From: Promethearchaeota archaeon
GTDB lineage: Archaea; Asgardarchaeota; Lokiarchaeia; Sigyniarchaeales; SOKP01
DNA length: 64,000 nucleotides
Assembly (NCBI GenBank): GCA_019058365.1
Contig: JAHPZE010000003.1
Span: 64,001 to 128,000 of the forward strand
Direction of reading: 5' to 3'
Part shown: positions 17,295 to 34,385 of the stretch, piece by piece
How positions within the stretch are numbered: position 1 is the stretch's first letter
Layout of the letters: every line of letters begins with the position of its first letter
Notes under the pieces: generated by a model
Told to the model about the DNA's origin: nothing
Databases searched by the model: none
The model's input: the letters and a program-made list of their open reading frames with translations, nothing else
Made by a program: the position numbers and the translations under genes

Positions 17295-17307
17295 TAGAAC
17301 ATACTCC
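17295..17307 (-). repeat. 23S-trailer core motif, copy 1 (TAGAACATACTCC on +), 4 nt past the tRNA-Pro 3' end
   Basis: Exact GAACATACTCC at 17297-17307. Confidence 0.7.
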
Positions 17308-17311
17308 ACTA

Positions 17312-17385
17312 TGGGGTAGGAGGGACTTGAACCCTCGACCTCCTGATCCCGAACCAGGAATCCTACCAAGCTGGACTACCACCCC
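17312..17385 (-). tRNA. tRNA-Pro(CGG)
   Basis: Reverse complement folds to a cloverleaf: acceptor GGGGTGG/CTACCCC, anticodon stem CCTGG/TCAGG with loop TT-CGG-GA, T arm GGTTCAAGTCC. Confidence 0.95.
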
Positions 17386-17440
17386 ATTTCGAACATTTCT
17401 CGTAATCCTTATACCTTAAACCCATTCCTTTTTCCCAAAC

Positions 17441-17525
17441 TAAAAAAAATAAAAAATTTAAAAACCTCTATTATGAACGGACTCTTTCTCATCCCACCTC
17501 AATCCATACAAACCTTACCTTACCG
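17441..17525 (-). repeat. Highly degenerate 23S-trailer relic, copy 2
   Basis: A-tract followed by ...tatgaacggactct...ctcaatccat...ccttacc; colinear with 29911-29985 but diverged. Confidence 0.45.
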
Positions 17526-17568
17526 TTTCAAATAAAATATATATCCTAGGGTTCTTAAATTCTTACTT

Positions 17569-18048
17569 TTACTTTTCATTTATTTGTTTGCCAAATTTAA
17601 TGGCATTTTTTGTTCCGATCCACAATATTTTTCTAAATTTTCTCTGGTTGATTACTTCGGCTCCTGCTTCTTCTACTTTTATTTTCATATATTCTAATGC
17701 TTTTCCACCAGTAAAACGAGCAGTGTTAAATACAATCGCTTTTTTTCCACTAAGATTTCCCATTCTTGCTAAGATTTCATCAAAAGCTTTTGGTGGAAAA
17801 TTTCCATATGTGGGCATACCGAAAATAATTAAATCATAACTTGCAGCATCAAGAATATTCAATTCCGTTTCTATTGCTGAAAAATCTTTATTTTCGAACT
17901 TGTCTAACAATTTTATCTTTTCAATAAATTTCCCGGTTATTTCGACTGGAAAGTAACTCACTTCATGAGTAGCCAGAGCACTCGCAATAGCTTCTGCTGT
18001 TTTTTTCGTTCTTCCTCCCATTGTAAAATATGCAATTAGAATTTTCAT
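17569..18048 (-). CDS. Flavodoxin family protein
   Basis: ILIAYFTMGGRTKKTAEAIA; YDLIIFGMPTY. Confidence 0.88.
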   Translation of the reverse strand: MKILIAYFTMGGRTKKTAEAIASALATHEVSYFPVEITGKFIEKIKLLDKFENKDFSAIETELNILDAASYDLIIFGMPTYGNFPPKAFDEILARMGNLSGKKAIVFNTARFTGGKALEYMKIKVEEAGAEVINQRKFRKILWIGTKNAIKFGKQINEK

Positions 18049-18119
18049 AATAAACAGTAATTTTTGAATAAACTAATTCTTTTGGATTGGTTATAATAAA
18101 AAGAGAAAAATTGTAATAT

Positions 18120-30397: not shown

Positions 30398-30580
30398 GAC
30401 TATTTTCGGGTTTGGCTTCGTGCTTAGATGCTTTCAGCACTTATCCATTGGCGCGTGGCTGCCCGGCCTTACCTTGTCAGATAACCGGTACACTAGAGGC
30501 GCCGGCAAAATGTTCCTCTCGTACTGATTTTCCCTTGCCCTCAGTCAACCCACAAACCCAGTAGATAGAATCCGACCTGT

Positions 30581-31357
30581 TTCGTGTGAGGGAAGATTGC
30601 TTTTCGTGATTAACTCATCAAGAGAGGGATTCAAAACCGCGGGTTTACTCTCATTGATGACAATTCCTTAATTCTTTAACATTGATTTGCTTGTCTGGAT
30701 GACAAGGCTTAACACTTTCATGAAACTTACATACTTGGTCTATCCCATGAATATGGAGCTCAAAGTACGGTTTTACACCTTCCTTTGATTGATAGGGACC
30801 AAGCACTTCGCTACATTTGAATTCAGTATCCAAAAAATCTTTAATATCTTGTAAGATATAGTACTCTGATTGACCGAATCTTATACGATAATCATGCTTT
30901 TCTGGTACAATATAATACCAGCCATCTGCATCAAAGAAACCACTTATAAAATTACACTGAATTGATTTTGTTCCATCTTTTATCCATAACGGAACCTTTC
31001 GATCTGTGTCAGCTTTAAACGACTCTATTGCTGATTTATAAATTTGATACACCTCTTTCGACGTTATTTCATAGTAATACACTGATTTACGAGTATCATA
31101 ATAAAAATGTCCTTTAATGTGAAATAAACTTTTAATTCGTGGTTCTATACAACTCAACAAGTAGCTCTTTGAATGTTGATAATATGTGACTCGATAAACA
31201 TAATGATCTTTATTGGAATATAGAGAACCATCTGCTAAAGCTCCAATCAAATAGGAAAATTTGTCACTTTTGAATCTCTCTTCCATCTTGATTAATTCAA
31301 TTCCAGATGGCTTATATTACTAAAGACTCTTTTGATTTTTCGCAATCTTCTCCTCAT
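30581..31357 (-). mobile_element. Archaeal BHB-type rRNA intron (777 nt) at about E. coli 2599/2600
   Basis: Removal restores CGTGAG^ACAGG; 4-bp helix CGTG/CACG with 3-nt bulges AGA and AAA; terminal stem TGAGGAGAAGATTGC/GCAATCTTCCCTCA. Confidence 0.93.
30651..31286 (-). CDS. Intron-encoded LAGLIDADG homing endonuclease (two-motif type)
   Basis: YLIGALADGS and FISGFFDADGW motifs; ORF lies wholly inside the intron loop. Confidence 0.92.
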   Translation of the reverse strand: MEERFKSDKFSYLIGALADGSLYSNKDHYVYRVTYYQHSKSYLLSCIEPRIKSLFHIKGHFYYDTRKSVYYYEITSKEVYQIYKSAIESFKADTDRKVPLWIKDGTKSIQCNFISGFFDADGWYYIVPEKHDYRIRFGQSEYYILQDIKDFLDTEFKCSEVLGPYQSKEGVKPYFELHIHGIDQVCKFHESVKPCHPDKQINVKELRNCHQ

Positions 31358-31429
31358 CTCACGACGGTCTAAACCCAGCTCACGTTCCCTTTTAATGGGC
31401 GTACAGCCCCACCCTTGGAGGTTCTGCGC

Positions 31430-31460
31430 TGTGCTCCACTACGGAAACACATATGTGCGC
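31430..31460 (-). other. ~30-nt hairpin insertion at the tip of H91 (mini-intron or insertion)
   Basis: Extra sequence between CCTGG and CCAAGGG, bounded by direct repeat GCGCA, with internal stem TGTGTTTCC/GGAGCACA. Confidence 0.7.
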
Positions 31461-33380
31461 CTCCAGGATAGGAAGAGCCGACATCGAGGAAGCAAGCCAC
31501 GAGGTCGATAGGGACTCTTACTCGTGACAACTCTGTTACCCCCGGGGTAATTTTTCTATCACCTCAACCATCCACACGAGAAATGTTGAGGATCGCTAGA
31601 CCAGGCGTTAGCCTCAGGATTCCTTGGTGATCAGAATCCAGTCAGACCAGCTTATGCTCTTAAACTCTTCAGCGGATTCCTGACCCGCTTGAGCTGATCA
31701 TAGGTTACTCTAGATATTGTTTCTAGAGTGAGCCGCCCCAGCCAAACTGCCCACCTGCGGGTGTCCGACGCGGTATAGGCGCCGTTAGCGATTTCAAAGG
31801 GGAAAGCCGGTGTTCCAATTGTGCTCCGCCGCTACCGAGATAGCGACATCGACGCTCCCGACTACACTCTGTATCCAATTCAAAACCGCAGCAACAAGCT
31901 GCAGTAAAACTCCACGGGGTCTTCTCGTCCCACTGGGTTTCTCCGGACCGTTCGCCGGAGTGCAAGTTCAATCGTCAGGAGGCTGGGACAAGAGGGAGAA
32001 CGTTGGACCATTCATGCACGTCTGAACTTACCAGACAAGGCATTTGGCTACCTTAAGAGAGTTATAGTTACTCCCGGCGTTTAGCAGGACTTACTCGGGT
32101 TGTAACCCGGATTTATCAGACTGCCACTGGCCAGGTTTCAGCCACTGTAAACAAGTTTTCACTCTATCAGTGACCTATGTTTTTATTAAACAGTCGTCCC
32201 CCCCTAGTTATTGCAACTTGTGATCCCCCGCACACTGCCGAAGCTGCGTGTAGAAGATCGCAAGCAAGCCTTATCCCAAAGTTACGGCTCTAGTTTGTCG
32301 ATTTCCCTAGCCTCCTTTACACGAATACGCCTTAGGCTACTCACCTAGGGGCACCTGTGTCGGTTCTGGGTACGATCACGGCATTTCTTACTTGTGCTTT
32401 TTTAATAGGTCCTGGGATTGGCGGAACCTTCCACAATTGGATGGCTATTCATGATTTAAGCTGGGTCTAAGTATTACACTATTCACCAGCCTTATGCATT
32501 TAAATAGGGAAATATTCGACAGCCCTATTCCACCTACCCTGAACCGTCGGCACAAAGTCATGCGTTACCGCTATTTGTAGTGCCGTGGTACAGGAATATA
32601 AACCTGTTTCCCTTTCGCGTATACCAGTTAAGGGTACGCTTAGGATCGACTAACTCTTCGCTGACGACGCATTGCAAAGAAACCCTTGCCCTTTCGGCGG
32701 ATGGGATTCTAACCCATCTATGCTTTTACTATTACCAGGATTTTCACTACGAGCAGATCTACAGGAACTCACGCCCCTGCTTCTTCTCTACCCGCACGCT
32801 CCCCTACCAGATCACGGGGTTCTTCCGCCCGTGCTCTTGGGTCTCGGTGGCAGATTTGAGCCCCGTCCATTTTCGGGGCTATATTTCTCGGCAAATGAGT
32901 TGTTACACACTCGTTAGGGAATGGCTACTTCTATACCTATCCTTTTGCTGTTTTAGAAATATAACGCCCTTTAGTTTAACACTTAACCTGCACTTAGGGA
33001 CCTTAACCCAAGTCTAGGTTGTTCCCTTCTCGGCGATGGACTTTACGCCCACCAACCCGTTTCCCAGAGTCTACAGTGCCAGCAGTTTCGGAGTTTAAGA
33101 GTAAAGTGAGGAATTTCTTCCCCATGCTCCGCAATTAGTGCTCTACACCACTGGCTGCCTCGTCTGAGACTTGGCTGATACCAACTTCGGGGAGAACCAG
33201 CTATCACCGATCTAGATTAGCCTTTTGCTCCTATTCCCAGTTCATCCAAGCGAATTGCACGTCAACACTGGTGCAGACCTCCATCGCCCTTTCGAGCGAC
33301 TTCATCTTGACCAGGAATAGATCGACCGGCTTCGGGTATTATAGCAGAGACTTTTGGCCCTTTAAGACCATTCTTCTGGC

Positions 33381-33467
33381 TTAATTCCTTAGAAGGATTC
33401 GCTAAACGTTTTCAGAATGGCAGAACCACTCTTAAACGAATAGGTCTTCCTAATGTGATAATTAAGT
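33381..33467 (-). other. Enlarged expansion segment ES9 (~90 nt)
   Basis: AT-rich insert between conserved flanks in the H30-H31 region; boundaries approximate. Confidence 0.65.
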
Positions 33468-34309
33468 TGCAAGAATATTGGTTTCCCTATGCCTACGCGC
33501 CGTAAGACGCTTAAGCTTGCCACTACTATAAACTCCCTGGCCAATGATTCCAGACTGATGATGCGACCCTAGTCCTCTGTATTCTGACATTCTGTCACCA
33601 GAACTCATTCATGCAGAATCTGTCCTTTCAGGCTGCATCCTTAATAAGCTATTTGGTTTCAAGCACTTTTCAACGCCCTTCCGGGTTACTTTTCATCTTT
33701 CGCTCACGCTACTATTTCGCTATCGGTCTTGGGACATATTTAGATTTACCAGCGTGTATCTGGCATTTTCATACGAGAAAACCATCCCGCATTACTCGGG
33801 GACTCTCGCAGCAACCTTCTAGATTATGATTACGCGGCTGTCACGCTCTATGGCTCAACATTCCAGGGGTATTCATCTTCTCTAGGGAGGTCGTACAAGG
33901 CCCACACACCACATTTCCCATAGGTTTCCCTAGGGATTCAGTTTGATCTAATCCGCTTTCGCTCGCTGTTACTCACGGAATCACTATTGTTTTCTTTTCC
34001 TCCTGGTACTAAAATGTTTTACTTCCCAGGGTTCCCCTTCCCTCACCTTTCGGTTATGGGAATCTTGTGGATTATTGGGCCACAAGAGGATGTCCTATTC
34101 GAGAATCTTGGGGTCTACGTCTACATGCGACTAACCCAAGCTTATCGCAGCTTGTCACGCTCTTCATCGGTGCCCAAGCCAAGATATCCACCAAATAGCG
34201 GAGGCGTATTGGCGTCTAATTAAGGAAAGATTCAGATTGCTTGTATAAGGGTATGCGTATTCGGAGACAATAAGTCAATTGAGTATTCTTTAGAGATTAC
34301 TCAAAATCA

Positions 34310-34385
34310 TTAATGACGATTTGAGACGATAATAAGAAGACATAAATTAATATTAATTAGGGAGTATGTTCTTATGAGCATGATT
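34310..34385 (-). other. 23S 5' leader arm of the processing stem
   Basis: GGAGTATGTTCTTATGAGCA (34361-34380) and TTTGAGACGA (34320-34329) are reverse complements of the trailer blocks. Confidence 0.8.

Follow-up and report, generated by a model that had tools for sequence, protein, structure and literature searches.

The stretch of DNA analyzed here, referred to as the window, is 64,000 nucleotides long and was taken from contig JAHPZE010000003.1 (positions 64,001 to 128,000) of the Promethearchaeota archaeon assembly GCA_019058365.1, which totals 4.74 Mb in 54 contigs. The window is AT-rich (~30% G+C) and holds the single copy of the 23S rRNA gene in the assembly, at 30042..34215 on the minus strand according to Rfam matches. 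The gene is preceded by its 5' leader (34216..34400, minus strand) and followed by its 3' trailer (29912..30041, minus strand), and beyond the trailer, down to 17.3 kb, accessory genes are interspersed with partial copies of the 23S 3' end and trailer. These copies are called relics below, the trailer beside the gene is called the live trailer, and the 18-nt sequence that recurs in the copies is called the core. The genome (G000) belongs to a genus of Loki-type Asgard archaea and was compared with others of its genus and order, which carry the other G numbers; all of the genomes are metagenome-assembled. The cores are most likely homology patches or recombination sites of a cassette hot spot that is anchored on the rRNA gene.

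In the live copy, sequence complementarity and cofolding predict that the core forms the 3' side of the outermost helix in the pre-23S processing stem, paired with an arm of the leader. The leader would supply the 5' strand of this ~130-bp stem, and its arm TGCTCATAAGAACATACTCC at 34361..34380 (minus strand) the 5' strand of the outermost helix, opposite the live arm at 29930-29947. Cofolding leader and live trailer gave a free energy of -125 kcal/mol and ~110 intermolecular pairs from 34387/29922 inward to the 23S ends, with pairing continuous from 34387 to 34216. The live arm is followed by an oligo-T run, which, judging from its sequence and position, probably terminates transcription. Archaeal processing stems of this kind contain a bulge-helix-bulge (BHB), which the EndA splicing endonuclease cuts before the product is circularised. 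An earlier sequence-only reading of this DNA had suggested looking for BHB geometry by cofolding, and the fold of leader and live trailer indeed predicts a canonical BHB (3-nt / 4-bp / 3-nt), made of a trailer bulge at 30012-30014, a leader bulge at 34236-34238 and a 4-bp helix 34242-34239 / 30015-30018, ~21 nt and 29 nt outside the mature 23S ends. The leader arm is near-invariant across the genus (~25 of the 30 leaders fetched), and the conservation of the core mirrors its pairing: the 11-nt helix is near-invariant, positions 12-13, which face a leader loop, vary, and the GAGCA that follows is moderately conserved. Overlapping the 5' end of the leader arm is an inverted repeat, AGCATG-N6-CATGCT at 34381-34398, which is conserved in relatives; by its sequence it is capable of forming a hairpin, and the hairpin could compete with arm pairing.

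The leader arm had been read as complementary to the core of a repeat, and this holds for eight same-strand copies of GGAGTATGTTCTTGAGCA (in rRNA sense) between 17.3 and 29.9 kb. Searching the window for the 13-mer AAGAACATACTCC with at most two mismatches returned nine matches against 2.05 expected, a number reached in 0 of 100 shuffles. Seven are on the plus strand (17295, 18874, 20513, 22719, 23910, 28765 and 29317); the others are the leader at 34361 (minus strand) and a match at 41515 that looks fortuitous. As had been noted, two copies, at 18874-18886 and 23910-23922, are exact. A second block, TCGTCTCAAA, is likewise exact where it was first seen, at 20538-20547, at 28786-28795 and in the leader at 34320-34329; the copy at 29343-29352 differs from it at one position and the live trailer at two. 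Taken simply as a 10-mer it does not exceed chance (9 found, 4.4 expected); every copy of it in the array stands at the expected distance from a core. Across the 4.74-Mb genome the 18-mer matched 11 times with at most three mismatches, nine of these being the array copies and the leader and two being doubtful matches on other contigs. A role as a genome-wide regulatory motif was ruled out on this ground, the 18-mer being confined to the 23S locus.

The live arm reads GGAGTGTGCTCTAGAGCA in rRNA sense and, as first described, pairs with the leader through one G-U pair and one C-A mismatch. The duplex of the live arm with the leader has an energy of -21.8 kcal/mol, and those of the relic arms are -28.0, -23.5, -32.2, -23.3, -24.0, -26.4 and -19.3 kcal/mol, so the observation that several relics pair better than the live trailer is right for six of the seven arms. 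Over the whole trailer the live copy (ddG -55.4) is tied for best with the 28.8-kb relic (-55.7), the other relics ranging from -20 to -44. The relic arms pair better only because the native live arm of this genome has three private changes, at core positions 6, 9 and 13. Eleven other live trailers that were examined have the canonical A at position 6 and T at position 9, and TA at positions 12-13 is also present in the live trailers of G008, G046 and G045. The three changes (one G-U, one C-A and one in the variable loop) would be tolerated by a stem of 130 bp. They also make TGCTCTAGAGCA (window 29933-29944) a perfect 12-nt palindrome, where the canonical arm is an imperfect dyad only.

The sequence-only reading had offered, as one explanation of the weaker live arm, that the live trailer came from a relative and that the relics are the native copies. 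This was not supported by a trailer tree, which rests on ~140 nt. There the live trailer clusters with its live counterparts from G046, G005 and G066 (88% identity to G046 and 86% to G005), and the long relics of this genome are set apart by long branches, at 78-79% identity to the live copy. By this comparison the live trailer is native and not imported.

The relics come in two forms: long relics with at least 100 nt of trailer, some with up to 250 nt of mature 23S, and short relics, which are ~45-80-nt units made of a few purines, a core and a T-run. The 87-nt and 113-nt repeat families of the window are both copies of the 23S 3' end and trailer; the 87-nt repeat had also been considered as a 5S rRNA, which its sequence rules out. 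The features that follow are all on the minus strand and are given in order of distance from the 23S gene. Between the live arm and the next core is a single-gene cassette encoding a Ras-family GTPase (29343..29870, Pfam Ras 3.8e-30). Its open reading frame (ORF) enters the purine block of the next relic, a short unit at 29291..29348 (core 29312-29329), and takes its stop codon from that block, with the usual C-terminus replaced. The long relic at 28743..28874 (core 28760-28777) is a full trailer copy, 80% identical to 29912-30041, and its pairing with the leader equals that of the live trailer.

At 26692..26804, between two convergent stop codons, is a piece of mature 23S without trailer, 94% identical to 30083-30195. 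The long relic at 22714..22862 consists of the last ~30 nt of the 23S, trailer and core (22714-22731), and is the sole copy without a T-run. These two are consecutive halves of one 23S 3' copy with 9 nt missing, and are now 3.8 kb apart; the joint 26692 / 22862 was inspected for a target-site duplication, and none was found. Positioned between the halves is a short unit at 23887..23943, whose perfect core (23905-23922) is identical in the syntenic copy of G005. Farther along are a relic trailer copy at 20491..20605 (core 20508-20525), which is 71% identical to the live trailer, and a short unit at 18849..18905 (core 18869-18886) heading a DUF1326 and flavodoxin cassette; the unit 17540-18902 is common to this genome, G005 and G066. 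Toward the end of the array, tRNA-Pro(CGG) at 17311..17386 forms a cassette of its own, whose array position differs between G000 and G005. Upstream of it is a degenerate relic unit (17451..17504), which with an nhmmer E of 6.2 is not significant alone and is supported by the G005 junction. The last relic unit (17269..17329) has its core at 17290-17307, 4 nt past the tRNA-Pro 3' end. Compared with the corresponding G005 region (window 17230-17540 against L021 8344-8579), the tRNA gene behaves as a cassette with core units on its flanks.

The array is a feature of the genus. Matches to GGAGTATGTTCNNGAGC with at most one mismatch were present in 41 of 54 congeners, ~155 in all against ~5 for the reversed control, and were clustered on one strand of one to three contigs per genome; nhmmer found 91 copies in 29 loci, in rRNA orientation in all except one. 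The array spans from the 23S 3' end to a conserved ACT-domain gene, with a length between 3.8 kb (G048) and more than 17 kb (G011). Genome comparison shows blocks of accessory genes gained, lost and reordered in this interval genus-wide, each block headed by a variable-length piece of the 23S 3' end and trailer that ends with the core and T-run. The cargo includes Ras-family GTPases, LRR, NosD/beta-helix, beta-propeller and TPR proteins, serine dehydratase, GNAT proteins, HTH regulators and DUFs. Even G005, the closest relative, differs in which cassettes it has and in their order: it is without the 18.9-22.7 kb and 25.8-29.9 kb segments, has 6.9 kb of its own, and carries tRNA-Pro before the DUF1326/flavodoxin cassette where G000 carries it after. 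In other genera of the order, relics were copied from those genera's own, unrelated trailers, as in G038 and G030, and judging from these sequences array formation is not specific to one trailer. Two genomes, G006 and G023, at first seemed to be closed genomes with relics far from the 23S; they were dropped as such when 100-N spacers (L026-L030) marked them as joined scaffolds, in which the spacing of relics and 23S carries no meaning.

The ends of homology between genomes cluster at the cores. Of 107 ends, 53 lie no more than 60 nt from a core start, where 9.6 were expected; in 1000 randomisations the count never exceeded 19. The ends of the live trailer itself account for part of this excess. 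Typical offsets were -3 to +3, +15/16 and +33 to +50, with other ends at relic 5' edges, and one joint in G005 falls exactly between core and T-run. This pattern of offsets is expected where the core is common to all copies and their neighbours diverge beyond it. The long relic at 22714-22862 is only 72-83% identical to its positional counterpart in G005, though the block that contains it has 94.5% identity overall, and relics have therefore been exchanged, not merely inherited. One allele can be live in one genome and a relic in another: the G005 live trailer is 95% identical to a relic of G046 and 91% to the live trailer of G046. Copies are also slightly more alike within a genome than between genomes (0.597 vs 0.552; 0 of 500 permutations), with the reservation that related genomes are not independent.

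Our leaning, held with somewhat more confidence than doubt, is that in the recombination hot spot between the 23S 3' end and the ACT gene, ordinary homologous recombination at trailer copies forms the joints. The joints would arise by recombination within trailer copies, most likely between the arrays of related strains, and the core would be the favored crossover patch because it is the only stretch common to every trailer allele in the genus. The suggestion in the sequence-only reading that the core might be a recombinase or recombination site gained ground in so far as breakpoints cluster at cores and half of the relics are short with a sharp upstream edge.

A recombinase would be central to an integron-like mechanism, in which the core, with or without the T-run, is the site of an unlinked enzyme (e.g. 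XerA-like) that excises circles and reinserts them at any core. Several features would fit it well: arrays in one orientation with many single-gene cassettes, homology that ends at core edges (-3 to +3 and +15/16) and in G005 exactly at the core/T-run boundary, short relics with perfect cores and sharp edges, the swapped order of tRNA-Pro and the DUF1326 cassette between G000 and G005, a 16S gene that has no array, and an imperfect dyad (TGTTCT / TGAGCA) in the last 12 nt of the core. The genome does have a gene for a XerA-like tyrosine recombinase, at G000:C7:157048. Compared with a dif-like site, which has two ~11-bp inverted arms around a 6-8-bp spacer, the core holds just the 12-nt imperfect dyad. 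No integrase was found in or beside the arrays by Pfam search of the window ORFs or by PF00589 scans of five genomes. The array neighbours are DUF72 and PanE, and the PF00589 matches in the five genomes are only on other contigs. No recombinase family recurred in 98 cargo ORFs among the 25 most frequent of 91 matched families. Nor was an attC-like hairpin found in 46 short units, whose mean folding z was -0.45 on the top strand and -0.04 on the bottom strand. Cargo ORFs downstream of cores are of mixed orientation, 53 same-sense vs 32 antisense, breakpoints also occur at relic 5' ends and elsewhere, the 23S pieces in long relics vary in length, and the relics in other genera come from unrelated trailers. 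On balance the integron-like mechanism seems doubtful without being far-fetched. The lack of a linked recombinase and of folding, the mild orientation bias and the unrelated trailers elsewhere favor homology-dependent recombination.

Serial integration of self-mobile elements would also leave inserted DNA flanked by direct repeats of a stable RNA gene's 3' part. Under this explanation viruses or plasmids with their own integrase entered at the 23S 3' end or trailer, in the manner of elements that target tRNA genes, and decayed to cargo, the live trailer being imported in the process; that some relics carry the 23S 3' end, like an attP that restores the gene, would agree with it. No integrase was found in or beside the arrays, though, and the cargo families listed, each with more than one of the 98 ORFs, include none for integrases, replication or capsids. 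The cassettes are often single host-like genes (Ras, TPR, LRR), and the live trailer, as described above, is native. A scan of IMG/VR for a viral attP gave eight matches attributable to chance, the best-looking of them inside a phage ORF. All copies are direct and without inverted partners, unlike the terminal inverted repeats of a transposon or miniature inverted-repeat transposable element. Serial integration as the source of the array looks very improbable.

The sequence-only reading had further proposed that the 11-nt core persists while the flanks decay and that the core is under selection. The core does persist. The neighbouring trailer segments vary also among live copies (0.47-0.62). 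Between species, the pairwise identity of live trailers is 0.87 in the proximal part, 0.47 in the middle, 0.62 in the purine block, 0.89 in the 18-nt core and 0.955 in its first 11 nt, and what looked like a kept core with decayed flanks is largely this live-trailer profile. In relics found through the core, a set biased towards good cores, identity falls to 0.72 in the proximal part and is 0.89 in the core. To reverse the bias, relics were searched for with the 23S end and proximal trailer as the probe. Of the 45 so found, 35 extend to the distal end, 30 of them with a core that has at most four mismatches. At live-invariant columns, this set retains the live consensus at 0.871 in the core vs 0.837 outside. 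On these numbers the truth appears to be between the two ascertainment schemes, with no clear excess of core retention. Core conservation no higher than that of the flanks, once ascertainment is corrected for, had been named beforehand as what would speak against selection, and the result comes close to it; selection on the core was not borne out. Syntenic internal relic pairs, of which two were usable and which are underpowered, had 1/36 substitutions in the core and 5/80 and 12/80 in the flanks.

These results bear directly on a third explanation, that relic arms are kept for a function, as terminator or 3'-UTR (3' untranslated region) modules, as back-up 3' arms for pre-rRNA that reads through, or as tags for trans-pairing with the 23S leader. 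An oligo-T follows each core except the 22.7-kb copy, same-sense cargo ORFs end at a median of 104 nt before a core, arm-leader duplexes reach -19 to -32 kcal/mol, and the cores of the Ras cassettes described below have been retained across deep divergence, all of which would suit such a function. Set against it, core retention in the bias-reversed set is no better than at other live-conserved sites, substitutions in relic cores, judged by eye, do not favor pair-preserving changes, many cores face gene starts or antisense genes, and the live arm, contiguous with the 23S, is the first to be transcribed. This explanation is improbable, and nothing in the sequences suggests that the copies still act in rRNA processing. 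The conservation of the relic arms need not have anything to do with an RNA function: relic cores probably look well kept because they were copied from a constrained helix arm and turnover is fast, and exchange with the live copy may refresh them.

The Ras cassette, with cores intact across deep protein divergence, points the other way from the bias-reversed set. A core-Ras-core unit of ~620-680 nt was found in G000 (29343-29947), G048, G042 and the metagenome contig L116; the loci compared were window 29343-29947, L113 11789-12465, L115 6393-7035 and L116 957-1594. The layout is core, T-run, a conserved TATA-like GATTTATTTA, ORF and core. The Ras proteins of the other cassettes are 43-65% identical to that of this genome, whose nearest paralogue in the same genome is 37% identical. 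A metagenome search for same-species variants of the cassette returned only relatives at 50-65% identity, two of the three also having cores.

Several observations sit poorly with ordinary homologous recombination. In the Ras cassettes, 17-18 of the 18 core positions are intact despite the 43-65% protein identity, which needs either selection or repeated refreshing; selection, selection for mobility, or recombination with live copies that renews the cores could each account for the retention. Roughly half of the relics are short units whose upstream edge is sharp, 10-35 nt before the core, and whose cores are near live quality, and a fixed recombination site explains these more easily. There is no array at the 16S gene of the same genome, though the 16S is an equally conserved homology anchor. 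The arrayless 16S, the sharp edges of the short relics and the core/T-run joint of G005 keep an integron-like mechanism alive. Lastly, the first arrival of a new gene between two arms is not explained by homologous recombination alone.

The locus resembles several known systems, each in part. Like an archaeal BHB stem, the leader and live trailer form one long helix from the 23S ends with a predicted BHB; the predicted stem is unlike others in being very long (~130 bp) and in having its outermost arm copied many times downstream. With islands at tRNA and tmRNA 3' ends, including archaeal tRNA 'gene capture', the array shares direct repeats taken from the 3' portion of a stable RNA gene and serially displaced 3' ends, but it is anchored on the 23S 3' end or trailer, has neither an integrase nor the backbone of an element, and is made of small cassettes that are reshuffled between close relatives. 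Short repeats in one orientation, cassettes of mostly one or two genes and fast turnover of content and order recall integron arrays (IntI, attI and attC), from which it differs in having no adjacent integrase and no attC-like fold, in a repeat that derives from an rRNA trailer, in its mixed cargo orientation and in cassettes with promoter-like sequences of their own. Like the additive flexible genomic islands found between conserved core genes, as in marine bacteria, the array is a hypervariable segment next to a conserved flank, here the ACT-domain gene, with a stable RNA gene on its other side, and it holds strain- or species-specific accessory genes with many repeat proteins (LRR, beta-helix, beta-propeller, TPR); it differs in that its internal joints are marked by copies of a pre-rRNA trailer arm.

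Full-text literature searches turned up no account of 23S-trailer arrays. What comes closest is HeimM2 of Ca. Heimdallarchaeum, a single 8-kb element between 16S and tRNA that carries a homing-endonuclease homologue (Wu et al. 2022, PMC8813620); it too is a mobile insertion directly beside an Asgard rRNA gene, and no trailer-repeat array is described for it. The present analysis contributes a comparison across the genus, statistics on the breakpoints, the finding that the live trailer is native, and a control for ascertainment.

A bolder form of the integron-like reading would have the distal arm of the pre-23S stem taken over as the recombination site of a trans-acting cassette system, an rRNA-anchored counterpart of integrons that shuffles accessory genes (Ras-family GTPases, LRR, TPR, beta-helix) between strains, with the arms maintained by selection for mobility. 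We regard this as unlikely, while taking it seriously. More generally, if the account of a cassette hot spot anchored on the rRNA gene holds, the archaeal lineage nearest to eukaryotes would have, at the end of its 23S transcription unit, a platform dedicated to gene exchange that carries eukaryote-like small GTPases among others, and a pre-rRNA processing element would double as a recombination substrate. It would also offer a sequence-defined locus for following the gene flow of uncultured Asgard archaea in metagenomes.

The 23S gene itself is interrupted by an intron at ~30584-31356 (minus strand) with an apparently intact LAGLIDADG ORF inside (30651..31286, 211 aa, Pfam match) in the 23S 3' domain; relatives join 31357 straight to 30583, and G011, G001, G024 and G012 do not have the intron. 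Its presence makes the default Rfam match squeeze the whole model into 31318-34215. Taken as the full 23S, this first match is misleading, as the gene continues beyond the intron to ~30042. The 3' exon runs from 30583 to ~30042 and includes an insertion of ~250 nt at ~30170-30400, at position 2882 of the large-subunit model, which varies strongly among congeners and is probably an Asgard-type expansion segment.

The 16S gene is outside the window (G000:C35:147965-149856), 50 kb upstream of the 23S on the same strand and unlinked to it, and a tRNA-like gene, seemingly intron-containing, is found ~200 nt past it. In a different genus of the same order (L100, G032:C1:2303000-2305700), a complete 16S follows within ~290 nt after the 23S 3' end, the reverse of the usual order.

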